A DNA stretch of 64,000 bases from Patescibacteria group bacterium UBA6241 (GCA_002441425.1 DJWB01000001.1:105653-169652); one strand, 5' to 3'. Positions 10,596 through 40,959 are shown, counted from the stretch's first letter. The notes: generated by a model from the letters alone, not told the origin. Numbers and translations: made by a program.

Positions 10596-10671
10596 TTCGT
10601 TTGACACGATACCAGACTATAGGGTGTGGGAAAAGAAGCAGGAGGTACAACCCTTACGCTACAATGTTTCT

Positions 10672-11703: not shown

Positions 11704-11712
11704 TATGACTAT

Positions 11713-12285: not shown

Positions 12286-12288
12286 TAC

Positions 12289-15367: not shown

Positions 15368-15368
15368 A

Positions 15369-15452
15369 GCTTTTATTTGTGCCGCAGGCGGGACTTGAAC
15401 CCGCACGCCGTTTCCGACAGGGGATTTTGAGACCCCTATGTCTACCAATTCC
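15369..15452 (-). tRNA. tRNA-Leu(CAA), class II
   Basis: Reverse complement GCCGCGGTGATGGAATTGGTAGACATAGGGGTCTCAAAATCCCCTGTCGGAAACGGCGTGCGGGTTCAAGTCCCGCCTGCGGCA. The cloverleaf is contiguous; anticodon loop CTCAAAA. Confidence 0.8.
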
Positions 15453-15565
15453 ATCACCGCGGCATTGACGTTACTATATTTCACTAGGTAAATAATAACA
15501 AATATGAAGATACTGCACAGGCAATACTCTCGTAAAGGAGGGACGCGATGCTACAATAGCGTGTA

Positions 15566-26513: not shown

Positions 26514-26584
26514 TGGGAGATCGTCTAATGGTAGGACAGCGGCCTTTGAAGCCGTGAATCTAGGTTCGATCCCTAGTCTCCCAG
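26514..26584 (+). tRNA. tRNA-Gln(TTG)
   Basis: TGGGAGATCGTCTAATGGTAGGACAGCGGCCTTTGAAGCCGTGAATCTAGGTTCGATCCCTAGTCTCCCAG. Anticodon loop CTTTGAA. Confidence 0.85.
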
Positions 26585-26683
26585 CAATAAGAAAGCTCAA
26601 ATAACAAAGCCCCACAACCGCATGATTGGGGGCTCCCGTGACGAAATCGGGCTACGTCTGCTTTTCTTACAGGGATTGAGGAC

Positions 26684-27169
26684 TCAGATGATCCCGTTGA
26701 GAATCTTTACGAGCTGGTCGATCGCTTCTCGCTGTTGGGCATCGTGAGTAACTTCGCAGAGGTCCAGCAAACTATCACAGCCTTCATCACATTGATGTGC
26801 TGAAAGGAACGCCTGACCGATGGCCTGCTTGCCACCGCTAATGCAAATCATGAAGTCACGAATCGGTTCGGAAACGTGGCTCATGACGTGAAGGCTGTAT
26901 CCGAAGGAATCCAGCAACTCTTCTGTGTTGATCGTGACCTCCGTGCCCATTTGCCTGCCAGCATTCTTAGCGGCTGCACCGATTGCATTCTTTACTCTGC
27001 CGACCACGTTCTGAATCAGTCTGGCTTGCTTATGTGCCAAACGTTCTTCATGTGACATCGAAAAAACCATTTCGAGATGAATATCAAGCAACATCGTAAC
27101 GTCCTTGGGAATGAGTTCAGCATCCCTACTGACTGCAGAAGTTGAACACTGCAGTTTGTCCGTGTGCAA
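26684..27169 (-). CDS. Hypothetical protein (161 aa), divergent from the cassette array
   Basis: ORF between tRNA-Gln and the first array repeat. No tyrosine-recombinase motifs are recognisable. Somewhat elevated GC. Confidence 0.4.
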   Translation of the reverse strand: MHTDKLQCSTSAVSRDAELIPKDVTMLLDIHLEMVFSMSHEERLAHKQARLIQNVVGRVKNAIGAAAKNAGRQMGTEVTINTEELLDSFGYSLHVMSHVSEPIRDFMICISGGKQAIGQAFLSAHQCDEGCDSLLDLCEVTHDAQQREAIDQLVKILNGII

Positions 27170-27233
27170 TATGCTTTATTTATATAGATATGTCAAGTAT
27201 AAAAGTTCCAACATCGTCCCATACCCCCAGCCA

Positions 27234-27578
27234 ATGTATACTCGTGGTATGCCAACAGCTAACATCTATTTCAGTGGTCAGGATAATGTTGAGGCACTTC
27301 AGGCTCTTATTCCTGACCTTAAGACGTATCTCGCACAGGAACTTTCTTGCAGCGACATTTCCCTCACATCAGAAGAGATTAGCATTCGATTTATTACAAA
27401 TACCGGCCCCAATATGATTGGCGATGTAGAGGTTCAGATATCGGCCCATTCATTCCCAGAACGCATTCAAAAGCAGGATCAAGTATGTCTCGACGTAATG
27501 AAATGGCTCCAAGATCGAACTGAGGTAAAGAACATTAAGGTCTGGCTTCAGCTCTCTAAGCTAGGACATAGTTGGTAG
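27234..27578 (+). CDS. Cassette ORF, hypothetical (about 114 aa)
   Basis: ATG 2 nt after repeat copy 1 (27204-27232); coding-like composition. Confidence 0.45.
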   Translation: MYTRGMPTANIYFSGQDNVEALQALIPDLKTYLAQELSCSDISLTSEEISIRFITNTGPNMIGDVEVQISAHSFPERIQKQDQVCLDVMKWLQDRTEVKNIKVWLQLSKLGHSW

Positions 27579-27654
27579 GTTCGTTAATCTTAAGCAGTTT
27601 CGTGCAGATTTGACATAGTAAGTTTTAGTGATAAAAATCATTCGGAGGTGCGAA

Positions 27655-28020
27655 ATGGCAACAATCCTTATTGTCGAAGATACGCCGCTATACCAGCGAG
27701 GGTATCAAAGGGAGCTCGCAGAGCATACCTTGATCATCGCAGGGACTTCGGCTGTCGCCCGGGCTGAATTCGCCCGAATGCAGCATACGATCGATATCAT
27801 CATCCTCGATGGTGAGCTCGCTTCGATGGACCCCGAACGGGACACTGTCGATATGGCGAGCGACTTCCGTGCCGCAGGCTTTACGGGTCCGATGATCGCT
27901 GCGAGCAGCAACCCGTACATCATGAACCAGCTCATGGAGAAGAATCGGTGCTCGCACCGAGCCAGCCCCAAGTCTGATGTCCAAGACCTGGTCAACCAGA
28001 TCCTCGAGAACCGCCCTTAA
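27655..28020 (+). CDS. Cassette ORF, CheY-like receiver-domain protein (stand-alone), high GC
   Basis: SD GGAGG 5 nt upstream of the ATG at 27655. MATILIVEDTPL...IIILDGEL shows the receiver-domain beta1/beta3 pattern. About 58% GC. Confidence 0.5.
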   Translation: MATILIVEDTPLYQRGYQRELAEHTLIIAGTSAVARAEFARMQHTIDIIILDGELASMDPERDTVDMASDFRAAGFTGPMIAASSNPYIMNQLMEKNRCSHRASPKSDVQDLVNQILENRP

Positions 28021-28104
28021 CCGAGCGGTTTTTCATTTACCGAAAGACTCAGAAGGGTTCCAACATCGTCCCAGACTGCCAGCAACTTTGGTACACTTAT
28101 TTGT

Positions 28105-28521
28105 ATGGAGAAAATAGACGAGCAAATTCTACTCACAGAGAGCTTTGATGTGCATCAGGATTGGGAAACCCCAATACCAGGATTTTATATAGTCGCATCG
28201 AGAGATCTCTCCAAAAAGTCTGTCGCAGATTTTACTGACGCTGAATCAGTTGAACTAGCGCTCCTTCTTAAGCGAGTAAGAAAAGCGATGAGTGAAGCTC
28301 TGGGTATAGAGGTTGTGTACTTTTTTGAGAACGAAGATACGGAGCATAGTTTTCATTTCTGGATGTTTCCACGACATGCATGGATGAATCAGTTTGGACC
28401 AAAGGTTCAGTCAATACGGCCAATTATTGAATTCGCTCGACAAACTATGGCAACTCAAGAAACTCTGGCTGAGGTTAAGGAGGCGGCAGAAAAGATGCGA
28501 CTTGTCCTAAAGGAGGGATAA
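28105..28521 (+). CDS. Cassette ORF, hypothetical (138 aa)
   Basis: Starts 22 nt after repeat copy 2; the stop codon abuts repeat copy 3. Confidence 0.45.
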   Translation: MEKIDEQILLTESFDVHQDWETPIPGFYIVASRDLSKKSVADFTDAESVELALLLKRVRKAMSEALGIEVVYFFENEDTEHSFHFWMFPRHAWMNQFGPKVQSIRPIIEFARQTMATQETLAEVKEAAEKMRLVLKEG

Positions 28522-28706
28522 AATAGGTTCCAACATCGTCCCACACAGCCAGCATTATTGACAAGCATGTTTATTGTTTGTATTGTACAAACTTAGTTCT
28601 TTGAACACGTTCGCCACAACGCAGGGCACCCTATTTTTAGGATTCTGTGCGCTGTGGCGAATCTGAGATCAGGTTTGTTTGAACGGCGCTGTAAAACCAC
28701 TCAGCA

Positions 28707-29165
28707 ATGGAGTTTCCTATGAGTGAACAACAGTCCTTCCGCGGTCAGGTGGATCGCATGCTGGGACAAATCGTCACCCACGGTCGCCATCTCGAAGGAT
28801 GGACGTCTGAGGATCGGCAGTGGGTGATCGAATATCCGGTTCCGGCCCTCATACTCTTCGCGAAGGCGGTCAGAGAGCGGGATTCAATTCGGGAACCAAA
28901 GCCCGGTGCGGTCGACCTCCTGATCAAGGACGTCTTCACTGTTGAGAAGGCGGGACAGATTGGATCCACGAGTAATGCCAACGCTCGGGTTCTCAATCTG
29001 ACGGAAGAACGTCCGCTCGGTGCCCTTGGGCCGATCAAGACACTCGGCGAGCTAGCCGGGTACCGAGAGAACGTTTTGAGACACGAGCCTAATATGGGAG
29101 ACCAGACCATCTCCTACATCAAGGCCGTCTTGGCAGAGCATGGTCTCAGTTTAAGTTCGCAATAA
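28707..29165 (+). CDS. Cassette ORF, hypothetical (152 aa), high GC
   Basis: About 57% GC; preceded by a long imperfect inverted repeat at about 28610-28662. Confidence 0.45.
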   Translation: MEFPMSEQQSFRGQVDRMLGQIVTHGRHLEGWTSEDRQWVIEYPVPALILFAKAVRERDSIREPKPGAVDLLIKDVFTVEKAGQIGSTSNANARVLNLTEERPLGALGPIKTLGELAGYRENVLRHEPNMGDQTISYIKAVLAEHGLSLSSQ

Positions 29166-29284
29166 GATCATCATGGGCTGTCTGTTTCCGAAAGGGAATG
29201 GCGGCCCTTTTACTTAATAAAAGTTCCAACATCGTCCCACACACCCAGCTATAAAAAAACCGCCCACGGCTCTTGAGGCGGTTG

Positions 29285-29626
29285 TTACGGCTTGGTCAGT
29301 TCTTCAAGAACGATATCGAGGACCGTTGTTCTCAGCCATTTCTCGAAAGTGGCTGGGTTAAAAAGGTAAGTCGGTTCTATATTGCCGGGCTCGATCTTCC
29401 TTGAAATGGTTGTTCGTGTCCAGATACCCATCATGCCGTTGGCAGGGAAGTAAACCAGAGATAAACAGAACCAAGGATGTCCTTCCCTTGTTCCCTCTAT
29501 GTCATACCGGAGGTAGTACTTTTCCTTTTCGTTACCGGACTCTATCTCAACATCGCAACATAGAGGCTCTGCGAAGTGAGACAAAATAGTCAGAAGCGAG
29601 TCAGGACCTTCAAGATCTGTCGTCAT
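29285..29626 (-). CDS. Inverted cassette ORF, hypothetical (about 113 aa from MTTDLEG), with its own terminator
   Basis: Minus-strand ORF between repeat copies 4 and 5. Perfect minus-strand terminator AACCGCCTCAAGAGCCGTGGGCGGTTTTTTTA at 29253-29284. Confidence 0.45.
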   Translation of the reverse strand: MTTDLEGPDSLLTILSHFAEPLCCDVEIESGNEKEKYYLRYDIEGTREGHPWFCLSLVYFPANGMMGIWTRTTISRKIEPGNIEPTYLFNPATFEKWLRTTVLDIVLEELTKP

Positions 29627-29724
29627 GTGCGACTCCTGTAGCGAATCTAGACAGAACCTACCACATGCTGAAGAAAGGTTCCAACATCGTCCCACACAGC
29701 CAGCAGAGGTTGTATAATAGTTGC

Positions 29725-30120
29725 ATGAAGAATTCTTTTGGAATGAGGCCTCCTGCTAGGAACGAGCGCCCAGTTTCTGAAGCAAGAGAAATAACCCCAG
29801 CCCAGGTTCCTGATTTCGTTAAATCAGAGTTTAAGAGACTGAGAGATCAAATACTCCAAGAATCCGATGGCGCAGAACTGAAGGATAAGAAAGGATTGGT
29901 GGAGAATCTAGAAGATGGGGTCGAGCGTTATATTTTAGTTAATGAATTGCGAGACTCAGATACCCGGGCACATACTCAAGCCAGCCCATTTATGAATTTG
30001 ACTCCAAGCGGAACGTATAAGGAAATACACATGATTGTGGACGTAAAGAACGGAACTATAACTAAGTCCGAAATGAATAGAAACCCCGATCCCTCATGGT
30101 TCTCTATGAGGTATAGCTAA
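29725..30120 (+). CDS. Cassette ORF, hypothetical (131 aa)
   Basis: ATG at 29725, 21 nt after repeat copy 5; the stop abuts copy 6. Confidence 0.45.
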   Translation: MKNSFGMRPPARNERPVSEAREITPAQVPDFVKSEFKRLRDQILQESDGAELKDKKGLVENLEDGVERYILVNELRDSDTRAHTQASPFMNLTPSGTYKEIHMIVDVKNGTITKSEMNRNPDPSWFSMRYS

Positions 30121-30172
30121 GAAGGTTCCAACATCGTCCCACACAGCCAGCAACGAATGCTACACTTTTGTC

Positions 30173-30631
30173 ATGCGAACTGTTGAACGAGAGATCGCCT
30201 CTGCGCTCATCTTCTCAAAAGACGGGAAGCTCCTGCAGGTTAAGAATGCTGAACCTGTGCACGGAGTGTATGGAGAATGTTGGGTTATACCTGGCGGCGG
30301 TCTCGAAGAGGGAGAGACAGTGGAAGAGGCCGTGGTACGCGAAGTGATGGAGGAAGTCGGTCTAGATATCTCTTCTTCTCCGAAGGAATTAGTATGGACA
30401 GGCAACGGGGAATCGACCCGGATCCTCAAAGATACGGGCGAGGAGGTGCTCGTAAAGATGCGCTTCAACAACTTTAAAGTTCAGCTTGAAGAGAACGCAG
30501 AAGATATCCAGCTTACGTTTGGTGACGAACACCATGTGCATATATGGACCGATGTATCTGAGCTGAAGAACATGAGCCTCTCTCGACCATCTATAGAATG
30601 CCTGACTGAGCTTGGTTATTTACCGAGCTGA
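30173..30631 (+). CDS. Cassette ORF, NUDIX hydrolase
   Basis: NUDIX box GGGLEEGETVEEAVVREVMEEVGL (G-x5-E-x7-REUxEExGU). Confidence 0.8.
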   Translation: MRTVEREIASALIFSKDGKLLQVKNAEPVHGVYGECWVIPGGGLEEGETVEEAVVREVMEEVGLDISSSPKELVWTGNGESTRILKDTGEEVLVKMRFNNFKVQLEENAEDIQLTFGDEHHVHIWTDVSELKNMSLSRPSIECLTELGYLPS

Positions 30632-30685
30632 TTCTGGTTCCAACATCGTCCCAGACTGCCAGCCATCTATGTTAGGATTGGTTGA

Positions 30686-31018
30686 ATGAATAAGAATGGA
30701 TCGACTCGAGCTTGGTTCGTCATGTTTAGTCTGACAGCTATTGCTCTTGCAATCCCTCTCACAAATCTCAGCCTCTTACTTTCTGGAATATATAACGAGC
30801 CCGGGTATTCAGATGGAACTGTTTCGAGCCCAACCGAGATAGCATTCCTAACTGTTGCCATACTCGTGCCAATTGGAGTGACGGTTAGTGTGATTATGAC
30901 TCAGTGGAAGCGCTCTGTGGCATGGGGTGTGCTTGGTGTAATGATCTCATTTGCTCCTGTGCTTCTAGCAGCAATTATTGCGGCCGCTGCTATCATCTCT
31001 CGGGCTCTGTTCTCTTGA
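30686..31018 (+). CDS. Cassette ORF, small membrane protein (110 aa)
   Basis: Three predicted TM helices; terminates with TGA at 31016-31018, directly before repeat copy 8. Confidence 0.5.
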   Translation: MNKNGSTRAWFVMFSLTAIALAIPLTNLSLLLSGIYNEPGYSDGTVSSPTEIAFLTVAILVPIGVTVSVIMTQWKRSVAWGVLGVMISFAPVLLAAIIAAAAIISRALFS

Positions 31019-31119
31019 GTGTAAGGGTTTCAACATCGTCCCACACCCCCAGCCTGTAAGAGAAAACCCGCCAACAACTAAGAGACGGGAATCTCATTGT
31101 TGCAGCGGGTCGCGTTTGT

Positions 31120-31503
31120 TTAGTAGATATGAGGTGCGACGAAATAGCGGATGGACACGCGGCCTTGCTCGCCCGGTTCGTCGATCGTGATGATGACGTT
31201 GTCTTTCCAGACAGAGCGCAGCACCTCAACTGCTGCCGCAACCTGTTTGTAGTTGCGGAGGCCAGGGAGGTTGTAGCCGTAGCGGTCTGAGTACTTTCCG
31301 TACATCAAAAGCACCTCGATGACCTGCTGCTCCCTGACGAATCGGCGCAGGCTGGTGTTCTCTGGAGGAATGGCCTCCAGAAGGGCAGTTGCGAGTCTCG
31401 CTTCAGCCTCAGCCTGATCTTGTCGTTGTCGCTCGAACTCAGAGAGAGTGCGGATTCGATCGCTCAGCGCTGACGCTAAACGAAAAGGATCGAGATTGTT
31501 CAC
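31120..31503 (-). CDS. Inverted cassette ORF, hypothetical (127 aa), elevated GC
   Basis: Minus-strand ORF between repeat copies 8 and 9. Confidence 0.4.
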   Translation of the reverse strand: MNNLDPFRLASALSDRIRTLSEFERQRQDQAEAEARLATALLEAIPPENTSLRRFVREQQVIEVLLMYGKYSDRYGYNLPGLRNYKQVAAAVEVLRSVWKDNVIITIDEPGEQGRVSIRYFVAPHIY

Positions 31504-31627
31504 GGTTCTTCTCCCAATAACCTAGTGAGGAATATACTATTTAAATTCTATTTAGTCAACAGATCCTGCAGAAAGGTTCCAACATCGTCCCAGACAGCAA
31601 ACACTAAAGAATGCCATAATCAGTAAT

Positions 31628-32077
31628 ATGTATTACATATACAAAGAAATGCAGCCAGGCGAACAAGAAATAGTTCGTGGGATGATACATAGTTTTTACG
31701 CAACCGATCCAGATATGGGCGCAATAACAGACGAGAAGATTAATCGTACTTTTAGTGAGTTTTCAAAGCATCCAGAGAAAGGTTTTGTATATGTAATAAA
31801 GGACGACCAACAGATTGTTGGCTACAGCATACTTGTGAACTTTTGGAGCAATGAGGCGGGAGGAAATATCATTGATATTGACGAGTTGTTCGTAGAAGAG
31901 AGCGAGCGAGGAAAGGGAGTGGGAACAAATTTCATTAAGCACATTATAGAAAGTCGTCTGAACGAATGTGTCGCTGTTGAACTAGGGGTCATAGCAGGGA
32001 ATGACAGAGCACAAAGACTTTATGAGCGAATAGGGTTTAGGCTCTCCACTAACCGTCGCCTAATATATGATTTCTAA
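31628..32077 (+). CDS. Cassette ORF, GNAT family N-acetyltransferase
   Basis: Acetyl-CoA binding motif ...ELFVEESERGKGVGTNFIKHII...; 149 aa. Confidence 0.75.
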   Translation: MYYIYKEMQPGEQEIVRGMIHSFYATDPDMGAITDEKINRTFSEFSKHPEKGFVYVIKDDQQIVGYSILVNFWSNEAGGNIIDIDELFVEESERGKGVGTNFIKHIIESRLNECVAVELGVIAGNDRAQRLYERIGFRLSTNRRLIYDF

Positions 32078-32135
32078 CCTGACTAGGTTTCTAACAACGT
32101 CTCAGACTGCCAGCTAATTTTGATACACTTCTTGC

Positions 32136-32810
32136 ATGAATTCTGTACTTATAACTGGAGCAGGCAGAGGAATAGGCAAAGAACTGTCTCTGAGATTTCT
32201 CGGTGCTGGGTATCGGGTGTGGGGAACTACAACATCGGGAGATGCTGATTTCTCGCACGAGAATCTTCAAATGCTACAGCTCGATCTCCGTTCACCAGAG
32301 AGCATAAAGACATGCGTGCAGGAATTAATTAGTTCCGGCGAACGATTCGATATTGCAGTTAACAATGCAGGGGCGCTCCTTGATGAGAACGAAAAGACCC
32401 TCAAGACAGATCTCCTACGCCAAACACTAGAGATAAACCTTATTGGAACTTCGGATTTTACAGAGCAAGTTTTACCTCTTGTGAATAAAGGAGGGCACAT
32501 TGTTATGGTGTCGTCTTCTGCTGGATCAGTTGGAAGGACTGGCAATGTAGTAAGCCGATATCCATCACAGTATCCCGCGTACAAGATCTCAAAGGCTGCA
32601 CTTAACATGTATATGCGTACACTTGCCGTTCGATTGAAGGATAAGGACATTACGGTGTCTTCTGTCCATCCTGGATGGGCCAGGACTGATATGGGAGGTG
32701 AAGAGGCATCAATCTCAGCGGAGGAAGCTGCCGACACTGTTTACAAGGTAGCCATATCTAGACCAGAGACTGGTCACTTCTGGTATTCAGAAGGAGAATT
32801 GCCTTGGTAG
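32136..32810 (+). CDS. Cassette ORF, short-chain dehydrogenase/reductase (SDR)
   Basis: ITGAGRGIGKEL (TGxxxGxG) and the catalytic YPAYKISKAAL (YxxxK). Confidence 0.8.
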   Translation: MNSVLITGAGRGIGKELSLRFLGAGYRVWGTTTSGDADFSHENLQMLQLDLRSPESIKTCVQELISSGERFDIAVNNAGALLDENEKTLKTDLLRQTLEINLIGTSDFTEQVLPLVNKGGHIVMVSSSAGSVGRTGNVVSRYPSQYPAYKISKAALNMYMRTLAVRLKDKDITVSSVHPGWARTDMGGEEASISAEEAADTVYKVAISRPETGHFWYSEGELPW

Positions 32811-32867
32811 AAAGTTCCAACGTCGTTCTAGGCCGTCAGCTCATAAAATTCATGCTAAATTTCTCTC

Positions 32868-33413
32868 ATGATTAAAATCACTTACTTTGTCCACGGAACA
32901 ACTGTAGACAATCAGAATGAGATCTCCTCCGGCTGGTCTGACGCCCCTCTATCCGAGTTAGGTATTCAGCAGTCAAAAGATCTTAAGGAGCAAACTAAGG
33001 ATAAGCATTTTGATGTAGTGTTTTGTTCTGACCTGCAACGCGCTCGCATGTCTGCAGAACTTGCTTGGGGCAGTATGTACGAGATTATTCCCGATGCTCG
33101 TCTTCGTGAATGTAACTATGGCGAGCTGAATGGAAGAGCATCTGAAATTGTAGAGCCGCTGCAAGAGAAGGAAATGCATTTCAAGGCATTTCCGGGTGGG
33201 GAGAGTTATGAGGATGTGAAGAATCGTGTTGCTGACTTCCTTGATTTCCTCAAAGAAAATTATGATGGCAAGCACGTAGCGCTAGTGGGTCATAAGGCAC
33301 CCCAGCTTGCACTTGATGTCCTTATCAAAGGAGTAACCTGGGACGAGGCTCTCGCGAATGATTGGCGTAAGACTAAGTCTTGGAAACCAGGCTGGGAATA
33401 CCAACTAATCTAG
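32868..33413 (+). CDS. Cassette ORF, histidine phosphatase superfamily (PGM-like) protein
   Basis: N-terminal ITYFVHGTT... and an internal VALVGHKAP region; tentative. Confidence 0.5.
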   Translation: MIKITYFVHGTTVDNQNEISSGWSDAPLSELGIQQSKDLKEQTKDKHFDVVFCSDLQRARMSAELAWGSMYEIIPDARLRECNYGELNGRASEIVEPLQEKEMHFKAFPGGESYEDVKNRVADFLDFLKENYDGKHVALVGHKAPQLALDVLIKGVTWDEALANDWRKTKSWKPGWEYQLI

Positions 33414-33472
33414 TTAAACAGGTTCCAACATCGTCCCACACCCCCAGCCAATAAAATTGTTATAGTTTATGT

Positions 33473-34042
33473 ATGACTTATATTCTTCATGGAGGATTTG
33501 AACGGGAAGATAACGAGTTAAATAGAAGCTTCTATCAAGAAGTTCTGAAAGGCGTTTCTGATAATGGAACACTTCTTCTTGTTCACTTTGCTTCAACTCA
33601 CTCTCCAGAAGAGGTGAAAGAAACACACGAACTCCAGGAGAAAAGGATGCAAAGCCTTACGAACAAACATATAAATGTTGAGTTCGCGACCGAAGAAGAT
33701 TTCTTAAATCAAGTGGAGCACGCGGATGCAATTCACATGCGAGGAGGACATACACCGAAATTGCTTTCAGTCCTGAAAAACTATCCGGAACTTGCAGCTA
33801 TGTTCTCAAACAAAACTATTTCTGGATCTTCAGCCGGAGCTTATGCATTGGCAAAATATGGACCCGGGCATTCAGAAGAGGGAATACGTGAAGGTTTGGG
33901 TCTTGTTCCTATTAGATTGGCCTGTCATTACGAAAGTCTAGAGTTACCTCCTGATTCTGAGTCACTTACTGAACTTAAAGCTATGGCGACAGAACTGGAA
34001 CTTGTAACATTGAGAGATTTTGAGTGGCGCGTATTCAATTAA
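33473..34042 (+). CDS. Cassette ORF, peptidase S51 (dipeptidase E)-like protein
   Basis: Nucleophile motif ISGSSAGAYAL (GxSAG) and a flavodoxin-like fold pattern. Confidence 0.5.
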   Translation: MTYILHGGFEREDNELNRSFYQEVLKGVSDNGTLLLVHFASTHSPEEVKETHELQEKRMQSLTNKHINVEFATEEDFLNQVEHADAIHMRGGHTPKLLSVLKNYPELAAMFSNKTISGSSAGAYALAKYGPGHSEEGIREGLGLVPIRLACHYESLELPPDSESLTELKAMATELELVTLRDFEWRVFN

Positions 34043-34093
34043 GGTTCCAACGTCATCTCACACCGCCAACAACTTCATGCTACGGTACTGAGT

Positions 34094-34546
34094 ATGAGAA
34101 GAGTTTCAGTAAGAGGTATCGCCCTACACGAAGGGAAACTTCTGTGCGTTAAATTGAAGCCGTATAACAAGATGGCTGCATCAGGAGGTGATTGGCGATG
34201 TCTTCCGGGAGGAACAGTTGAAGAAGGAGAATCATTGAATGTAGCTCTTATGCGGGAGATGTACGAGGAGACTGGCGTAAGTCCGGAAATAGGGAAACTA
34301 TTGTATGTTCATCAGTTTCTATTTGAGGAAAGTGACCAGCTTGAATTTTTCTTTCATATTGCTAATCCGGGTGACTATCTAGAAATAGACCTAGAGAACA
34401 CAACGCACGGATTACATGAGATCGAGAGTATTGATTTCGTAGACCCAAAAGAAACATTTATTCTCCCTATATTTCTTTCTCAGGAGACTTTAAAGAACCA
34501 AATCGAATCAAATGCACCGGTTAAAATATTTTCCTTTGCAAAGTAG
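34094..34546 (+). CDS. Cassette ORF, NUDIX hydrolase
   Basis: NUDIX box GGTVEEGESLNVALMREMYEETGV. Confidence 0.8.
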   Translation: MRRVSVRGIALHEGKLLCVKLKPYNKMAASGGDWRCLPGGTVEEGESLNVALMREMYEETGVSPEIGKLLYVHQFLFEESDQLEFFFHIANPGDYLEIDLENTTHGLHEIESIDFVDPKETFILPIFLSQETLKNQIESNAPVKIFSFAK

Positions 34547-34589
34547 GTCAGAGGATGGTTAATAAAAAGTTCCAACATCGTCCCAGACT

Positions 34590-34628
34590 GGCAACAAATA
34601 AAAACTGCCTAAAACCTTTCGGTCTTCG
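34590..34628 (+). terminator. Hairpin terminator-like element at the end of the array
   Basis: AAACTGCCTAAAACCTTTCGGTCTTCGGCAGTTTGAG immediately after the last repeat copy. Confidence 0.45.
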
Positions 34629-34958
34629 GCAGTTTGAGAGTTCATTCAGAATTGGCTGCGTCAGCTCTGCGTCGCTCGTCAGTCAATTCATCAAAATTTT
34701 TTGAGCTGAGTCGCCGATAGAGCGCATGCCGCTCATGTGGGTCTCTGTCTACATTGTTGGGGTGATCCAGAATTTCTTCAAGAGTTCTGAATCCTGAAGA
34801 TTGCTCGTGCATGAGATAGGTCTCCCTTCTGGACAGAACCTAACACGGACTGCATATACGTTCGAGCGTCGCCCAATACTACTAGACATGAAAATGGACA
34901 AGGAGCTATTTTATTGTATGGTGCTAGCAGAGAGACAATTAGCCAGGAGGGCTAGCAG

Positions 34959-35708
34959 ATGTACCAACCAACACAGCCGCTACTGTTCTCCTGGATTCAT
35001 GAAGGTGAATACCCGGGAGGAGACTACACCTTTTTACACAGTAATGGCTCATATGTACGAATTGAGGACTGGAAGAAACGGTATAAGGACACAAAGGAGA
35101 AACCGGCTATCCCATTCAGATTCACCGTGCGTGACCGCACATTCATTGGCCACATAACCGACGAATGTCTGGTATCGCGCATAACTGAGTATCTGCAGGA
35201 TTACTACGGTAAGCGTTACACCAACTGCTCCGCGTTCGCTCACTTCCTGACTACCGGCACGTTTATAGAGTGCGACGAAGAACAGAGCCTCGTTGTGCTT
35301 ACGCAGGACATGGCTCAGTACCGAGGCGAGACTATTCGTGTCGGGGATATGCTTTGCGTAATCTATGCGAATGATCGCCTTTGGCGGTCTCGCAAGGTGT
35401 CGCACCGCAAAAGTTACTTGCGTGCCAAGAAGAAACGGAGAGGTACGCACGAGTTCACTCACGGGTTACCTCCAAGAAAGAGGATTCTCTCCGCGAAGGG
35501 TATCCGGGAACTCTGCGCGAGTGTTCTCGCTGATGATTATCACTTTCTTGTCTGCGTCGCTAAAGACGCCGCCGGGCCGGTATGGCTTGCTCAAGGTGGA
35601 CGCTACGCACCGGGTGACGAACCTAGTCCGCTGGTGTTCACGGTGGGGAACAATGATGGATACGATAATGTAGTACCTCTCCTTGCGCTCCTTAAAAGAC
35701 GTAGATGA
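34959..35708 (+). CDS. Hypothetical protein (249 aa) with a basic KKKRRG stretch
   Basis: Coding-like ORF. The overlapping 34801-35157 ORF looks spurious. Confidence 0.4.
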   Translation: MYQPTQPLLFSWIHEGEYPGGDYTFLHSNGSYVRIEDWKKRYKDTKEKPAIPFRFTVRDRTFIGHITDECLVSRITEYLQDYYGKRYTNCSAFAHFLTTGTFIECDEEQSLVVLTQDMAQYRGETIRVGDMLCVIYANDRLWRSRKVSHRKSYLRAKKKRRGTHEFTHGLPPRKRILSAKGIRELCASVLADDYHFLVCVAKDAAGPVWLAQGGRYAPGDEPSPLVFTVGNNDGYDNVVPLLALLKRRR

Positions 35709-35811
35709 TCCCGGCTCTACACTTCAACGCCCGCGGCATTTATGTCGTGGGTGTTTCATTTTAAGTTCAGCATCGCTCCAGGCGGTCAGTTTATGGGTAT
35801 ATACTCTGCAT

Positions 35812-36816
35812 ATGTCAGCAATAGAACTTGTAAGAGTCTCTACTCCGGAAGATTGGGAGCAATATCACAGCATTAGAGAAAAAGTTTTATTTGAGAACAA
35901 GAACCGGTCTTATGATCGGACTCATGCTGATGAACACCGGCCTAACAATGTGCCATTTCTGCTAAAGAAGGACGGACTAGGTATAGCGACCACAAGACTA
36001 GATCTTCGTCCTGACACCCAAGCGGCTATTATCCGTCTAGTTGCTGTAGTTGAGTCTGAGCAACGAAAAGGGTATGGACGTGCTCTACAAGCAAAAATAG
36101 ATGAATATGCACGTTCTCAAGGCGTAAAAAGGCTTCTCGTTAATGCTGCCCCCGATGCTATTGGTTTCTATAAAAAGATCGGTTTTGTGCCGGAATCGTG
36201 GGACCCAGAAGAACTCACAGGAATATCTAAGGATTCCGTTCAGTTGTCTAAAGCATTGTTACCCATGACTGAAAAGGAAATACTTGAGCTAATCAAGAAC
36301 GACGAGTGGATGATGTCTATTCTTAGGGTAGCTCGTAGCCTTAATCTGCCGGATTGGATAATTGGTGCAGGATTCGTAAGAAACAAAGTTTGGGATCATC
36401 TACACGGGTATACGGAACGCACCCCTTTAGCTGATATAGATTTGATTTACTTTGATCCAGCTCATATAGATGAGTCACAAGAAAAAGAGTATGACCAAAG
36501 GCTACATCAATTAGTTGATGTTCAATGGTCTACAAAGAATCAAGCACGCATGCATGTAATAAATGGAAACGCACCATTTACCTCTGCAGAAGACGGATTG
36601 GCGCATTGGATTGAAACTCCAACATGTACTGGAGTAACGTTGCTAGACAACGACACTCTGCAATTAATTGCACCCTACGGGATAGAGGACCTTGTGCACT
36701 TGCGAGTGAGACCAGTTAACCCAGAGAAAGATATTACGCTTTATAGAGAGCGGGTAACAAAAAAGAAATGGAAGGAAACTTGGCCAAGACTAGAAATCTT
36801 AGAGACCAGAGCATAA
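35812..36816 (+). CDS. GNAT acetyltransferase fused to a nucleotidyltransferase-family (NTP_transf_6/DUF925-like) domain
   Basis: N-terminal GNAT (VESEQRKGYGRALQ...GFYKKIGF); C-terminal WIIGAGFVRNKVWDHLHG...DIDLIYFD. ATG at 35812. Confidence 0.55.
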   Translation: MSAIELVRVSTPEDWEQYHSIREKVLFENKNRSYDRTHADEHRPNNVPFLLKKDGLGIATTRLDLRPDTQAAIIRLVAVVESEQRKGYGRALQAKIDEYARSQGVKRLLVNAAPDAIGFYKKIGFVPESWDPEELTGISKDSVQLSKALLPMTEKEILELIKNDEWMMSILRVARSLNLPDWIIGAGFVRNKVWDHLHGYTERTPLADIDLIYFDPAHIDESQEKEYDQRLHQLVDVQWSTKNQARMHVINGNAPFTSAEDGLAHWIETPTCTGVTLLDNDTLQLIAPYGIEDLVHLRVRPVNPEKDITLYRERVTKKKWKETWPRLEILETRA

Positions 36817-36832
36817 TCAGCGAGAACAAACT

Positions 36833-37132
36833 CTACTGCATACTTACTAGTATGAGCATGCTGATTGTTAGCACAGCAAATACCCCTAGTGTCTTTAAAA
36901 AGTAGGACACGGCTTCAGCTCTCCTATTTTCTATAAGCAGTGCAACTGGTTGATAGAAAAACAGGAAGGCCATAACAGCTACAGAGAGCACCAGCAGAGA
37001 AATTACTCCCACGCCGTCTAGAAATGTGTCTGGTGTGTCGTGACGAAGTGATTCAATAAACTGCATAAACAGCGCTATGGCGCTTATATACAGGGCTGCT
37101 GCTACTGCATTCAATACGGGATTCCATTTCAT
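36833..37132 (-). CDS. Small membrane protein (99 aa)
   Basis: Three TM helices. Confidence 0.45.
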   Translation of the reverse strand: MKWNPVLNAVAAALYISAIALFMQFIESLRHDTPDTFLDGVGVISLLVLSVAVMAFLFFYQPVALLIENRRAEAVSYFLKTLGVFAVLTISMLILVSMQ

Positions 37133-37198
37133 ATAACTAGTATAACGGCGCAGCGCCTACCTTAGTTGCTTGCTGCTTGGCCGCGATATACTACACGC

Positions 37199-37630
37199 AT
37201 GAAAAAGGGAGAGGATTATGTGGGCGTTACCCTAAGCTTCTTCTGCCATGATGGAAAAGGAAACTTTATACTATCTAAACGCAGTGCAAATTGTCGTGAC
37301 GAGCACGGACGATGGGATTTCGGAGGAGGGGGATTAGATCTGCACGAGACAGTAGAAAATCAGCTACGCAGGGAAATAAAGGAGGAACTCTGTACGGATG
37401 TACTTGAATACGAGTTTCTCGGATATCGGGATGTGCACCGAGAGCATGAAGGAAAGAAGACACACTGGGTATCTTTGGACTTTAAAGTACTGATAGATCC
37501 TTCTCAGGTTAAGAATGGAGAGCCACACAAGTTTGATGAAATAGCATGGTTTAGACTGGACGCTCTTCCTGAGCCACTACATTCTCAGGCTCCTTTGGAG
37601 GTCGCCCTGTATAAGGCACAGCTTTCATAA
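37199..37630 (+). CDS. NUDIX hydrolase
   Basis: NUDIX box GGGGLDLHETVENQLRREIKEELC. ATG at 37199. Confidence 0.75.
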   Translation: MKKGEDYVGVTLSFFCHDGKGNFILSKRSANCRDEHGRWDFGGGGLDLHETVENQLRREIKEELCTDVLEYEFLGYRDVHREHEGKKTHWVSLDFKVLIDPSQVKNGEPHKFDEIAWFRLDALPEPLHSQAPLEVALYKAQLS

Positions 37631-37706
37631 GAGAATCTTGCAGAAATTGACTTTAATTTCTGCATCTATATAGTCAAAAAACCTAAAACACCGAGTCGGA
37701 GGGTTA

Positions 37707-38030
37707 ATGGTAGATGCTCTTTTAGTACTGGTGTATCTGGGCTTTGCGACCTCTGCGATATCAGTAACGCTTACGAGATCGGATATTACTCGCGAGCCGC
37801 GTCAGTGGCTCAAAGAGAAAGTCCCGTCTCTCGCAGGCCTTATTCATTGCCCATACTGCACTAGCCACTGGGTCGCCATGGTGCTTGTCCTGTTCTACAA
37901 GCCCGTTGTGGTTGACCTGTTTCTCCCCATTGATCTCGCCGTCTCCGTTATGGGCGTCGTAGGGATTGCCGGGGTCGTCTCAGGGATCTTGATTACAAAG
38001 ATCCCCTCGCTTGGAAGGAAGGAAGACTGA
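37707..38030 (+). CDS. Small membrane protein (107 aa)
   Basis: Three TM helices and a CPYC motif. Confidence 0.45.
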   Translation: MVDALLVLVYLGFATSAISVTLTRSDITREPRQWLKEKVPSLAGLIHCPYCTSHWVAMVLVLFYKPVVVDLFLPIDLAVSVMGVVGIAGVVSGILITKIPSLGRKED

Positions 38031-38150
38031 AATGCCGAAATGGGTTCCGAGATGCCCGATCTTTTGGATGCTGGTCATCATCATCGCCGTGAGCATCGGC
38101 GTGTGGCGGTGTAGTTCCGGATAAGGGATAACTTCCCACGAATACTTTTT

Positions 38151-38178
38151 AAGCCGCCGGAAGAATTGGCGGCTTTTT
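38151..38178 (+). terminator. Rho-independent terminator
   Basis: AAGCCGCCGGAAGAATTGGCGGCTTTTT. Confidence 0.6.
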
Positions 38179-38232
38179 ACTTTGTGAACACAAATAAATC
38201 TTGCCGTTTAGTATGCGATATACTTTATTCAT

Positions 38233-38571
38233 ATGAAATTCTTTGTAACCTACCAAATGCCCCATACGGGAATGGACGAGTGGATGAAAATCCCAGAAGA
38301 AGAGCGAAAAGTACAAGAACAGCAAATGCAGTCTGAATGGAATGCGTGGATGGGAGACCACAAGGACTCGCTAACTGAAAGTGCTGGTGTTGGAAAACCA
38401 AAGCGAATCACCGCAAAGGGAACTGAAGACGCTCGCAACGACATTATGATGTACTCATTTGTTGAGGCCACTACGCTTGAAGAGGCAGCAGAGATATTTA
38501 AAGATCATCCACACTTTGGCATTCCAGGTGCGTGGATAGAAGTGATGTCCGTAAATAAGAATATCGGCTAA
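38233..38571 (+). CDS. Hypothetical protein (112 aa)
   Basis: Coding-like ORF; no motif recognised. Confidence 0.4.
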   Translation: MKFFVTYQMPHTGMDEWMKIPEEERKVQEQQMQSEWNAWMGDHKDSLTESAGVGKPKRITAKGTEDARNDIMMYSFVEATTLEEAAEIFKDHPHFGIPGAWIEVMSVNKNIG

Positions 38572-38587
38572 GTAGTAGCAGATACGC

Positions 38588-38935
38588 ATGTCCTACAAGT
38601 TAACGAAGTCTGCGGATCTTCCAAAGAAGGAGAAGTACGAAATGGAGATCCGTATCTTGCCTGAGATTGGGAATTGCAATGTCATTACCGCTGAAACAGA
38701 AACCGGACACAATCAGGAGTTTTATGACACTGAATCAACCTTCCACTACATCATAGTGAGCGGGTCCGGAAGCTTTTTCCTTGATGATAAGGAAGTCCCT
38801 GTTTCTGAAGGCGACTATCTTTCGATAGAACCAAAGACAAGAATCTATTACAAAGGCCGTATGCGTCTTGTGCTAATAACAAATCCTCCCTGGCGGCAGG
38901 AGAATGAGGTTGAGACAAGATCCAAGATTTGGTAA
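38588..38935 (+). CDS. Cupin-domain protein
   Basis: Double-stranded beta-helix pattern around HNQEF...HYIIVSGSGSF...GDYLSIEP. Confidence 0.5.
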   Translation: MSYKLTKSADLPKKEKYEMEIRILPEIGNCNVITAETETGHNQEFYDTESTFHYIIVSGSGSFFLDDKEVPVSEGDYLSIEPKTRIYYKGRMRLVLITNPPWRQENEVETRSKIW

Positions 38936-38942
38936 ACGGCGT

Positions 38943-39347
38943 ATGCAAAAACTACCCACAGAACTCGCTGCTCTACTAAGAAAGAATAAAGAGACTCAAG
39001 CAAGCTGGAGTTCACTTACTCCTATTGCCCAAAGAGATTTCATTACATGGATTAATTCTGCAAAGCAGGAGACAACTAGGATAAAGAGAGCTGAACGAGT
39101 TCCTGATATGTTGCGCTCAGGAAAGCGCCGCCCCTGCTGCTACGCAGTGGTGCCCATGGATCTTTATAGAGAACTAGGAGCAAATCCCAAGGCGAAAGCT
39201 ACATGGAAGACTCTCTCAGCCACAGAACGCAGAGACTTTAGCGATTGGGTAAGTACAGCTAGCAGTAAAGAGGATACCGAGCAAAGAGTTGAAAAAGTGA
39301 AGAAGCTTCTTATGCAAGGCAAAAAGAGCCTTGGAAGCAAGAAGTAG
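38943..39347 (+). CDS. YdeI/OmpD-associated family protein
   Basis: LPTELAALLRKN...WSSLTPIAQRDFITWINSAKQETTRIKR pattern. ATG at 38943. Confidence 0.55.
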   Translation: MQKLPTELAALLRKNKETQASWSSLTPIAQRDFITWINSAKQETTRIKRAERVPDMLRSGKRRPCCYAVVPMDLYRELGANPKAKATWKTLSATERRDFSDWVSTASSKEDTEQRVEKVKKLLMQGKKSLGSKK

Positions 39348-39398
39348 CGCCTCTCAACAGACTCCTCATACCCACTTCACAAGGCGCATGAGATAGTT

Positions 39399-40061
39399 AT
39401 GAGACGTATGCAAACAAACCAAAGAAACATCCTGATTATAGGCGCTGTAGTTGCTGCTCTCATCCTTATCGGAGGGGGATGGTATCTAATTTCTAATGTA
39501 AACCCTCCTCCTTCAACAGATACCTCAACATTTAAGAGTAAGGCATTCTGGTTTGACTACCCAAGAATATTTGATGTACGTGAGTTTGAAACAGGTGCAG
39601 TACTCGTAGGCTCTCAAGAACGAAAGGAATTTGTCCCGTTGGTTCAAGTTATGGAGTACAAGAGTGATCCTGATTCACCACTACCCGCAAGCTACGAGGA
39701 GTTTGTAACGCAGCAAGCACTTGAACTTTGTGGGTCAGACAACTCGGAAGAGAGTGTTGAGTGTAGTACTCCTGTAGTTGAGCCGTTCACAAGCCTTAAT
39801 GCATTTGAGGGACTTAAAGTTACGCTTACTCTCACACGGACTAATCTAGAGACACAGGAATCTGTCGCATCAACCTTTGGTCCAATCTATGCATTTGATG
39901 TAACGAAGCCTGCAACAGCAGAGGATCCATTAAGATACACATCAATATTTGTGAACCCAACTCTTCAGGCAACTCTCTCAGGCACTGAAGTAACAGAGTT
40001 GCTTGATGCTGTTGTTGCAAGACTTGTTATAAGTAATGAAGACTCACAACTTCCACTCTAA
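39399..40061 (+). CDS. Hypothetical membrane-anchored protein (220 aa)
   Basis: N-terminal TM helix ILIIGAVVAALILIGGGWYLI. Confidence 0.45.
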   Translation: MRRMQTNQRNILIIGAVVAALILIGGGWYLISNVNPPPSTDTSTFKSKAFWFDYPRIFDVREFETGAVLVGSQERKEFVPLVQVMEYKSDPDSPLPASYEEFVTQQALELCGSDNSEESVECSTPVVEPFTSLNAFEGLKVTLTLTRTNLETQESVASTFGPIYAFDVTKPATAEDPLRYTSIFVNPTLQATLSGTEVTELLDAVVARLVISNEDSQLPL

Positions 40062-40063
40062 CT

Positions 40064-40474
40064 ATGAAAGGATTCGTAACTAATATTGAGCACGAGACAG
40101 AGGAGAATAATAACTTTAGAAAGGTGCTCTACACTGCGCAGCATTGCCAGCTCGTTGTGATGTCAATTCCAGTATCAGAAGATATTGGAGCAGAAATACA
40201 CGATGTAGATCAGTTCATTCGTATTGAAGAAGGGGAAGGTACGAGCATACTAGACGGTGTTGAACGATCTCTCACCAAGGGCTCTGCGGTAGTTATTCCT
40301 GCAGGTGTACAGCACAACATCATAAATACTTCAGACACCAATGCACTCAAGCTATATAGCGTATATGCTCCCGCACATCATGAAGATGGAGTGATCCACA
40401 AAACAAAAGCTGAGGCACTTAAAGATGATGAACACTTTGACGGACACACTACTGATGCGCTAGAACAAGAGTAA
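40064..40474 (+). CDS. Cupin-domain protein
   Basis: [17 protein letters not shown]...[11 protein letters not shown] is a cupin motif pair. Confidence 0.5.
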
Positions 40475-40959
40475 TGACATCTAAAGCCATTCTTGCTGGA
40501 GGCTGTTTCTGGGGCCTTGAGGAGCTGTTTAGGAGCCGTACAGGGGTGCTTGCTACCGAAGCCGGCTATACCGGAGGAGAGAATGAGAACCCTACATATG
40601 AGAACCACCCAGGCCATGCAGAGGCTCTGGAAATTACGTATGACCCTGAGCAGACCTCTTTCATAGAACTTTTGGATTTCTTTTTCTGCGTACACAATCC
40701 AACGACACTAAATCAACAAGGAAATGACATGGGAACCTCATACCGGTCTGCTATTTTCTATCAGAACGAAAAGGAGAAGAGAGAGGCAGCTGAGTTTATA
40801 CAAAGAGTAGATAACTCAGGAAGATGGGAGGATCCTGTAGTTACTACATTGGAACCATTCACCAAGTTCTATCCTGCAGAAGAGCCTCACCAGGACTACC
40901 TACAAAAGAATCCAGGAGGCTATACCTGCCATGCAGTGTATTTTGATTCATACCTGTAA
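40474..40959 (+). CDS. msrA: Peptide methionine sulfoxide reductase MsrA
   Basis: Active-site GGCFWG at the N-terminus, and a C-terminal EPHQDY. Confidence 0.88.

Follow-up and report, generated by a model that had tools for sequence, protein, structure and literature searches.

A 64,000-nt stretch of a Patescibacteria genome (Patescibacteria group bacterium UBA6241, GCA_002441425.1 DJWB01000001.1:105653-169652), here called the window, carries between 27.2 and 34.9 kb an array of small genes separated by 14 co-oriented copies of a short repeat, R, and a vestigial 15th, with a tRNA-Gln gene at its head. Comparison with other genomes showed that the units between the repeats are discrete cassettes with a site at their 3' end, which are gained and lost as units, are co-oriented with respect to that site and follow a defined head, as expected of an integron in the functional sense. 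On balance, we consider it probable that the array is an integron-like cassette system that uses sites derived from tRNA-Gln and a site-specific recombinase encoded in trans.

An earlier note on this DNA had described 14 co-oriented copies of a 29-bp repeat with genes between them, and this arrangement was borne out by pattern matching, shuffled controls and a profile search. The pattern given in the note, with up to three mismatches, matched 11 times, always on the + strand, where none was expected (100 shuffles), and a profile built from 196 copies of other genomes matched 14 times on the + strand, from 27197 to 34599, with no R outside the array at E<1 in the 64-kb window. Copies 10, 11 and 13 are degenerate (13-22 bits, the remaining copies scoring 30-47), and the degenerate copies missed by the pattern search were supplied by a repeat finder. 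The count of 14 was reproduced, to which an almost erased 15th copy at ~34859-34888 has to be added. The R-to-R spacing was 390-852 bp, as first described, while the repeat itself proved longer than 29 bp. Counting R coordinates from the first G of GGTTCC, the information content of 230 copies was sharp at positions -5 to +30 and zero beyond, giving a conserved span of 31-35 nt, A-n-A-A-A-[G/a]GTTCCAACATCGTCCCA[G/c]AC[w][G/c]CCA[G/a]CAA; the consensus of R can be written AnAAA-GGTTCCAACATCGTCCCAsACwsCCAGCAA (AnAAA-GGTTCCAACATCGTCCCAGACTGCCAGCAA). To the right of ...CAGCAA no position exceeded 0.2 bit. Dyad symmetry was absent from the conserved span of R and from that of the head site H described below, and R is not palindromic. 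Rfam 15, run over 26-36 kb at E<=1, matched only the tRNA and gave nothing for R, and R had no match in PLSDB or INPHARED. In the 118 other loci at which R was found, 283/284 profile matches lay on the majority strand of their locus. An occurrence upstream of core genes, which the earlier note had named as grounds for refutation, was not seen in the rest of the window or in the sequences flanking these loci. A repetitive extragenic palindrome, a bacterial interspersed mosaic element, a miniature inverted-repeat transposable element and a DNA uptake sequence were considered and rejected, as R has zero copies outside the array in 64 kb, is co-oriented and is not palindromic.

Comparison of related loci, which the earlier note had proposed as a check, revealed shared flanks, units gained and lost between them, and shared cassettes ending exactly at R. 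The two closest relatives, at the species level, were loci L002 (DnaX 88%) and L236 (86%), in which the gene order upstream of the tRNA was identical to that of the window; the order ParB-RelA/SpoT-TopA-DprA-SerRS-Dus-DnaX-tRNA-Gln was also kept in every more distant relative (DnaX 43-79%), and ended at the tRNA. From there on the three genomes diverged, their identity breaking off exactly after ...GTCTCCCAGC(A/C)A. Between this point and a terminal unit lay 8.3 kb with 15 units in the window, 6.3 kb with ~11 in L236 and 3.2 kb with six in L002, and almost none of the cassettes in between was common to the three. The terminal unit of the window was itself found in L236 (83.5%) and L002 (85%), preceded in each by a different decayed R, and its homolog in L074 was the first cassette after tRNA-Gln. 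Most of the relatives with a DnaX of 43-79% had no R or one R, so that the distribution is patchy, and no alternative repeat family was found in those that lack it. In L126 and L127, tRNA-Gln was followed by one cassette, one R and then, ~1.2 kb past the tRNA, a shared gene (78-84% aa identity) that stands 11.6 kb past the tRNA in the window.

The limits of a single cassette were read from those shared between arrays with different contents. A histidine phosphatase (His_Phos) cassette present in both the window and L236 (85%) was homologous from the first base after the left R, through the open reading frame (ORF) and the right R (both ending in CAGCCAAT), where the homology stopped immediately. 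The left R sites differed, and the neighbours were a short-chain dehydrogenase (SDR) on the left and an S51 peptidase on the right in the window, as compared with a NUDIX hydrolase and a methyltransferase in L236. The cassette pairs L010/L105 (88%) and L002/L101 (79%) had the same limits and unrelated neighbours. Because the homology of shared cassettes includes the right-hand R and stops there, each cassette appears to own that R, and these alignments indicate that a cassette consists of a promoter, a gene and an R at its right end. We infer that exchange would take place where R ends on its right-hand side and, at the head, where the tRNA ends.

The repeats of one array differed almost as much as those of different genomes (6.3 differences over 36 nt within an array vs 7.3 between genomes), and the set in the window mixes variants common in other genomes. 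Since the diversity within an array nearly equals that between genomes, R seems to arrive with the cassette instead of being copied from a resident repeat. The arrays were also polar: the first R had a mean score of 38.5 bits and the last of 23.8 (Mann-Whitney p=1.2e-4), rank and score were negatively related in 8/9 complete arrays (pooled rho -0.37, p=1.6e-6), and the weak copies in the window were 10, 11, 13 and 15. A polar acquisition of the type known from clustered regularly interspaced short palindromic repeats (CRISPR) or casposases, by which gene-sized DNA would be inserted at the head and the resident repeat duplicated each time, would suit the repeat of ~30 nt, the strict co-orientation, the leader-like head and the degenerate repeats at the distal, trailer-like end. 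Nevertheless, the repeats of one array are not mutual copies and share their variants with other genomes, the right-hand R travels with the cassette, the units are tidy promoter-gene modules and not random fragments, and no cas or Cas1-like genes were present among the Pfam-scanned ORFs of the window or the top array-flanking families, making this the least probable of the explanations weighed here. The earlier note had already set CRISPR aside, and rightly: CRISPR repeats are near-identical and 23-47 nt long with spacers of 26-72 nt and, as a rule, accompanying cas genes, whereas here unlike repeats enclose genes of 0.3-2.8 kb (390-852 bp spacing, with ORFs, in the window) and cas domains are lacking.

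The layout of the arrays was a head followed by a repeated cassette-R unit, the head being the 3' end of tRNA-Gln or a 26-nt mimic of it, AGGTTCGATaCCTAGTCTGCCAGCAA (together termed H). In most genomes it was located 200-900 bp upstream of the first R, on the same strand. A complete tRNA-Gln served as head in 11/51 arrays with a visible left end, and a fragment of ~26 nt that contains only the T-arm and the 3' acceptor part of tRNA-Gln in 25/51. An H-specific profile found either form at the head of 39/47 arrays with a visible left end, which is a lower bound, as L020 was scored headless yet contained H on inspection. Of 74 H matches that did not overlap R, 65 were in the head position, two within arrays, five after them and two on the other strand. 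In the window the head is the tRNA-Gln at 26514-26585, one unit upstream of R1 and on the same strand, which the earlier note had overlooked and on which the structure hinges.

Aligned in blocks, H reads AGGTTC / GATACCTA / GTC / ------ / TGCCAGCAA, R reads AGGTTC / CAACATC / GTC / CCAGAC / TGCCAGCAA and tRNA-Gln reads AGGTTC / GATCCCTA / GTC / ------ / TCCCAGCAA. H and R match at 18 of the 26 positions of H with one 6-nt indel, their ends being alike and their middles different. Because the three sets of blocks align, R is a diverged derivative of the tRNA-Gln 3' end. Its middle, CAACATCGTCCCAGAC, is conserved across classes whose tRNA-Gln acceptor stems differ; R did not co-vary with the resident acceptor stem, and no R matched the tRNA of its own genome. 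Mimics of H were found directly after, and often overlapping, the stop codons of unrelated core genes, namely HI0933-like genes in L065, L037 and L083 and ychF-like genes in L061, L081 and L088, with the TAG stop of the core gene forming the first bases of H (TAGGTTCGAT...). H seems to have supplanted the original 3' end of those genes and seeds secondary arrays at these places. As a separate observation, L004 (oriented 1408-1718, Saccharibacteria) and L055 (7040-7193, Parcubacteria) share tRNA-Gln with an identical 28-nt linker, ACAGCACATTTCACTCRCTCRCTTG, after which stands a second, 5'-truncated tRNA-Gln copy; that of L055 ends in the H type TCTGGCAGCAA and scores 33.9 bits as a tRNA.

The position at a tRNA gene raises the possibility that the units are serial scars of integrative elements targeting tRNA-Gln, each of which left a partial tRNA copy and one cargo gene and lost its integrase. 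Partial tRNA-Gln copies near the arrays of L004, L055 and L065 are in line with such an origin, and stacked elements with partial tRNAs have been described in Prochlorococcus islands (10.1101/2020.12.28.424599). We consider it improbable, as R has its own conserved middle and is not a copy of the resident tRNA, the units are uniformly small and single-gene, and no integrase fragments were found in 141 cassette ORFs.

Across loci, the median length of 165 units was 567 bp (5-95% range 298-1319 bp). The longest ORF of a unit pointed forward in 93 cases and backward in 65, and seven units had none. The stop codon of forward ORFs was 0-10 nt before R. Promoters were assessed by direct reading and by junction statistics across loci, a generic promoter and terminator scan having given no excess over shuffled background. 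A -10 box 4-9 nt before the start was present in 47% of forward ORFs (31% with TGn) and a Shine-Dalgarno sequence in only 13%, which makes them look leaderless, while 59% of reverse ORFs had a Shine-Dalgarno sequence. In a subset of forward cassettes a rightward TGnTACACT stood at a fixed 8-9 nt after R, serving the apparently leaderless starts. On the other side, a leftward module, TCTRGACAGAACCTAnCATAnnTTGCAnAAA, was located exactly 17 nt before R in 30/283 junctions, including those of window units 4 and 14; on the minus strand it reads as TTGGAA (inside R), 18 nt and TGnTAGGTT. Both fixed relations, that of the stop codon and that of the promoter module, concern the R at the right of the gene. 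Transcription of the whole array from a single Pc promoter, which the earlier note had raised, is unlikely because most cassettes appear to carry a promoter of their own.

These junctions also bear on whether R is a regulatory or structural signal, such as a silencer or activator site, a factor-dependent terminator or a promoter element, with no role in mobility. R directly follows stop codons and adjoins conserved outward promoters on both sides in subsets of junctions, as such a signal might. Its orientation, however, is fixed whatever that of the flanking gene, it lies anywhere from 0 to 95 nt ahead of the downstream promoter, the units by which relatives differ are bounded exactly by R, and no R accompanies other genes in 64 kb. 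A purely regulatory R is therefore quite improbable, although a regulatory role could coexist with recombination.

The earlier note had suggested that the site might be specific to this lineage; it proved to be common to several Patescibacteria classes. The invariant 20-mer GTTCCAACATCGTCCCASAC was found in at least 118 loci of a species-representative genome collection, and ~60 of 80 loci among the matches listed carry Patescibacteria labels, which are those of the deposited metagenome-assembled genome records (Saccharibacteria, Paceibacterota/Parcubacteria, Nomura-, Wolfe-, Kaiser- and Berkelbacteria, and 'Patescibacteria group'). These loci often had 2-7 co-oriented R copies, 300-900 bp apart. 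Outside the candidate phyla radiation (CPR), 15 single matches in Proteobacteria (mostly Rhodobacterales) and 33 in IMG/VR belonged to one conserved high-GC coding sequence (L005, L017, L031 and other non-CPR genome loci, and the viral or prophage contigs L202-L234), which shares an exact 22 nt (GGTTCCAACATCGTCCCAGACA) with R and lacks the rest of it, an apparent coincidence. Phage or plasmid carriers of R were accordingly rejected, all 33 matches in IMG/VR being this unrelated sequence, and the H pattern had no match in IMG/VR.

R was also examined for the structure of an integron site. Folding of 120 R copies with their flanks as DNA gave a mean z of ~-1, owed to the terminators of neighbouring reverse genes, with the core bases paired in ~50% of the copies and no pattern among them. 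The best run of complementarity between R and its flanks of +-130 nt was 6.06, as compared with 6.03 in shuffled controls (n=201). Folding and complementarity together ruled out R as an attC hairpin, in keeping with the earlier note, which had seen no palindrome. It is highly improbable, then, that this is a canonical integron, whether a cluster of attC sites lacking an integrase (CALIN) or a sedentary chromosomal integron of which this is the distal part, with an unusually short attC. Such an origin would account for co-oriented single-gene cassettes with a site at their 3' end, for their typical cargo and for the lack of a nearby integrase, as in CALINs, but there is no attC-like fold, R is conserved in sequence and not in structure, its complementarity to the flanks equals that of the shuffled control, and the head is a tRNA end and not an attI beside intI.

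The likeness to integrons is one of working. Both have co-oriented, mostly single-gene cassettes with the site at their 3', right-hand end and a distinct head site, and in both the younger units stand near the head, the cargo consists of small enzymes and proteins without assigned function, and cassettes are shared between otherwise differing arrays. The parts differ: attC is conserved in structure, variable in sequence and 57-141 bp long, whereas R is 31-35 bp, conserved in sequence and without a hairpin; integrons use attI beside intI and a Pc promoter, whereas here the head is tRNA-Gln or its mimic, no IntI was found and most cassettes appear to have their own promoter; and ~40% of the cassettes are reversed here, in contrast to integrons. 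Because it lacks both defining features, the attC structure and IntI/attI, the array ought to be classed neither with the integrons nor with the CALINs. Of the earlier label 'CALIN-type' the integron-like working holds, and the term can be kept only as an analogy; the companion statement that this is no textbook integron agrees with the missing attC fold, the missing intI and the tRNA-Gln head.

In the mechanism that we favour, a recombinase encoded elsewhere in the genome would act on free cassettes in circular form, joining their R to H or, less frequently, to another R. Strand exchange would take place in or just after the common ...CCAGCAA box, leaving the tRNA intact and placing the new cassette beside the head, and older cassettes would be pushed outward, where their R sites would decay. 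The enzyme would most likely be a tyrosine recombinase that targets tRNA 3' ends, because elements integrating at the extreme 3' end of tRNA genes reportedly use such enzymes.

Several results weigh against this proposal. A Pfam scan of the window ORFs (reaching 27 kb leftward and 29 kb rightward from the array) and of a further 10 kb upstream found no recombinase. This agrees with the earlier statement that no intI lies in the window, which a motif scan of window ORFs of at least 120 aa also supported by finding no recombinase, while the suggestion to look for one within ~20 kb outside the window yielded none in the 10-kb upstream stretch. No recombinase family was enriched among 149 array-flanking ORFs (RVT_1 twice only), and a motif scan of 3,486 ORFs, comprising the fetched loci except 33 viral ones and mostly from CPR, detected a single Xer-family gene, in L020, abutting an array. 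The arrival of H mimics at the ends of unrelated core genes is not accounted for. What lies to the right of ...CAGCAA in R is barely conserved and there is no dyad, in which R looks unlike classical tyrosine or serine recombinase core sites. Neither circular cassette contigs nor an empty-site variant was observed, and contigs with identical DnaX (same strain) carried identical arrays. Between His_Phos and the terminal unit, the window has other cassettes than L236, and because of this insertion at the head alone would be insufficient, internal insertion at R or differential loss being needed as well. The comparison loci, finally, were all retrieved through R or DnaX, and their counts give no prevalence.

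Three further observations concern possible enzymes. The Xer-family gene (L020:4198-5190, minus strand), whose 3' end abuts the last R, is the sole recombinase seen beside any array. Between two divergent arrays in L112 the genes encode YebC, RuvC, a penicillin-binding protein and DnaN, with no recombinase among them, and the 249-aa protein of the terminal unit in the window, considered as a possible hidden recombinase, had no similarity in PDB, Pfam or NCBIfam.

The main rival, homologous recombination, dispenses with a dedicated enzyme: R and H would be portable homology through which RecA swaps cassettes after natural transformation, as has been proposed for the promoter early stem-loop (PeSL) elements. 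No recombinase was found near any of ~50 arrays, R is without the dyad that recombinase core sites have, and its 31-35 bp are near the minimal length for RecA-mediated exchange; CPR bacteria have competence genes, and DprA is encoded just upstream in the window. Yet H and R share only ~6 + 3 + 9 nt, too little for this purpose, while H is conserved and positioned; in the informative comparisons, the breaks coincide with the right-hand border of R or of the tRNA and none is internal to R; homogenization of the copies within an array is not seen; and neither the polarity of decay nor the strict co-orientation is predicted. Near-identical 30 nt across CPR classes would, moreover, be hard to maintain without a protein that reads them. 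We regard homologous recombination as unlikely, and return to recombination at R and H by a trans-encoded enzyme as the preferred explanation.

In the window, the array can be followed part by part. The tRNA-Gln(UUG) gene (26514-26585, +) was called by ARAGORN and matched Rfam RF00005 with 63.8 bits; its 3' part, AGGTTCGATCCCTAGTCTCCCAGCAA (~26560-26587, +), forms the head site H, where identity with L236 and L002 ends after ...CCCAGC(A/C)A. The first unit, from the head to R1 (26588-27198), is on the minus strand, with an ORF of 161 aa without family (26684-27169) and a promoter, TTGACA-17-CATATT, at 27196-27168 on that strand. The earlier note had listed two reversed units; four ORFs are in fact on the minus strand, this one and those at 29285-29626, 31120-31503 and 34642-34812. 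In most units the start codon follows the repeat by 17-45 nt (first given as ~20-55 nt), but ~150 nt precede the ORF that starts at 28707.

All R copies are on the + strand. R1 (27204-27233, 36.6 bits) is followed by cassette 1 (27249-28020, +), with ORFs at 27249-27578 (109 aa, no function assigned) and 27628-28020 (a weak Response_reg match), and by R2 (28056-28085, 46.6 bits), which equals the global consensus ...CAGACTGCCAGCAA. Cassette 2 (28105-28521, +) has a 138-aa ORF of the apparently leaderless type (TGGTACACT, 7 nt, ATG) and ends at R3 (28526-28555, 42.3 bits). Cassette 3 (28558-29165, +) has a sigma-70-like promoter, a leader of ~120 nt and an ORF at 28707-29165 (152 aa); its upstream part (28558-28706) contains a perfect TTGACA-17-TATTGT and a strong hairpin in the leader, unlike its leaderless neighbours, and the leader had no Rfam match. 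R4 (29222-29251, 38.8 bits) precedes the reverse cassette 4 (29253-29676, -), in which a terminator hairpin (~29258-29284), an ORF (29285-29626, 113 aa) and, by direct reading, the leftward promoter module TCTAGACAGAACCTAcCAcAtgcTGaAgAAA (29646-29676) follow one another up to R5 (29677-29706, 42.6 bits). Cassette 5 (29725-30120, +) encodes 131 aa behind TATAAT, 6 nt and ATG, and is followed by R6 (30124-30153, 42.0 bits), a NUDIX hydrolase as cassette 6 (30173-30631, +; PF00293, 2.7e-15), R7 (30636-30665, 41.1 bits), cassette 7 with a probable membrane protein of 110 aa (30686-31018, +) and R8 (31026-31055, 30.3 bits).

The reverse cassette 8 (31056-31574, -) contains an ORF at 31120-31503 (127 aa) and TTGACT-17-TATATT at 31559-31531. 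Beyond R9 (31575-31604, 37.8 bits) lie a GNAT acetyltransferase as cassette 9 (31628-32077, +; PF00583, 1.9e-15), the degenerate R10 (32087-32116, 16.1 bits), a short-chain dehydrogenase as cassette 10 (32136-32810, +; PF00106, 4.9e-32) and the degenerate R11 (32813-32842, 12.7 bits). Cassette 11, together with its own R12 (33421-33450), extends over 32844-33453 (+) and encodes the histidine phosphatase (His_Phos_1, ORF 32868-33413); it is followed by cassette 12, a Peptidase_S51 (33473-34042, +; PF03575, 1.2e-9), the degenerate R13 (34043-34072, 22.4 bits), a second NUDIX hydrolase as cassette 13 (34094-34546, +; PF00293, 3.7e-14) and R14 (34568-34597, 35.2 bits). The reverse cassette 14 (34598-34858, -) has a terminator, an ORF of 56 aa (34642-34812) and the promoter module TCTGGACAGAACCTA (34828-34842), and the vestigial R15 (~34859-34888; CGTTCGAGCGTCGCCCAATAC..., 14/21 core matches) stands at the canonical 17 nt after that module. 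The terminal unit (34890-35764, +) encodes 249 aa (34959-35708). Of the cargo named in the earlier note, both NUDIX hydrolases, the GNAT, the SDR, His_Phos_1 and Peptidase_S51 were recovered by Pfam, the receiver domain was weak and the others had no family.

Past the last R, the region 34890-40959 lacks R and has further genes of accessory type, for the 249-aa protein, a fusion of GNAT and NTP_transf_6, a NUDIX hydrolase, DUF1360, two cupins, OmdA and MsrA. In other genomes, homologs of several of these genes are cassettes flanked by R, and L236 has the genes in a different order; probably they are fossil cassettes. Several genes of the window likewise recur, at the protein level, as R-flanked cassettes elsewhere. 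Across loci, the 141 cassette ORFs matched only 54 Pfam families in all (HAD, alpha/beta hydrolases, methyltransferases, NUDIX and others), with no mobility genes among them by Pfam and none in the larger in-array ORFs.

Two units of other loci stand apart. The first unit of L020 (3500-3781) has no ORF and no Rfam match. With a GC-rich, possibly structured sequence and a minus-strand TTGACA promoter, it may be a cassette for a non-coding RNA. At the distal end of the array in L003 (1932-3206, -), an RVT_1 domain is fused to a DnaG-type CHC2 zinc ribbon; a group II intron was considered for this reverse transcriptase locus and rejected, no intron RNA having been detected. Elsewhere in the window, an ORF with LAGLIDADG_3/WhiA-like domains (14792-15484, -) abuts or overlaps tRNA-Leu(caa) (15379-15463), and small paralogs with a T4SS_pilin domain are clustered, two in the window (10624-13197) and five just upstream of it (L235 11981-13917).

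Other known systems resemble the array in part. Hackl et al. (10.1101/2020.12.28.424599) described tycheposons, which target tRNA genes and form stacked elements with partial tRNAs in Prochlorococcus islands. As here, flexible genes stand beside a tRNA, the direct repeats between them resemble the tRNA 3' end, and each newer insertion shifts the earlier ones away from the tRNA; tycheposons, however, are of kb scale, come with a tyrosine recombinase of their own and in many cases with replication genes, and have true partial tRNAs as repeats, whereas the units described here are single genes of ~0.3-1.3 kb without mobility genes, and their diverged repeat keeps its own conserved core across classes.

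Xer modules, that is, the pdif modules of Acinetobacter plasmids and the integrative mobile elements exploiting Xer (IMEX) at dif, have sites of ~28 bp, small cargo and a housekeeping Xer encoded elsewhere. The small cargo modules and the short sites are alike, and the sole array-adjacent recombinase (L020) is of the Xer family; dif sites, though, consist of two inverted 11-bp arms with 6 bp between them (for this class in general, 28-31 bp with a central region of 6-8 bp) and successive pdif sites face opposite ways, whereas R has no dyad and all copies are co-oriented. The PeSL elements, in the hyperplastic regions of T4-type phages, are short conserved intergenic repeats with promoters that flank small accessory ORFs and reportedly mediate their modular shuffling. 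They combine a promoter with a stem-loop and act by homologous recombination in phages, whereas R has no stem-loop, is not a promoter and is paired with a tRNA-derived head. In the literature searched, whose coverage was incomplete so that prior work is possible, no description of the R motif (as a 16-mer) or of such arrays was found, in agreement with the suggestion of the earlier note that this is a distinct, undescribed junction site.

To our knowledge, no well-understood system other than the integron, with attC and IntI as its defining parts, builds arrays from single-gene cassettes. The array described here would follow the same logic with different parts, namely a tRNA-derived site defined by its sequence, a tRNA or its mimic as head, and cassettes that express themselves. 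In its boldest form, for which we find the case evenly balanced, the proposal is that Patescibacteria have their own equivalent of the integron: single-gene cassettes, each bearing a 31-bp site derived from tRNA-Gln, would form a pool common to the phylum and be inserted at tRNA-Gln or at portable 26-nt mimics of its 3' end, possibly by the housekeeping Xer-family enzyme or by a new family. This would be an independently evolved second capture system and a main route of gene flow among ultra-small symbiotic bacteria that appear otherwise to have few mobile elements. If true, cassette capture would have evolved more than once, and the hypervariable locus downstream of Dus-DnaX-tRNA-Gln would be accounted for. 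The 20-mer would serve as a sequence handle with which to extract the flexible gene pool of CPR bacteria from metagenomes, and the asymmetric 31-bp site would set a search for a new site-specific recombinase, of possible use in genome engineering. CPR genomes are ~1 Mb in size and contain few recognized mobile elements; with a defined 31-bp handle, gene exchange in CPR bacteria would become a testable question.

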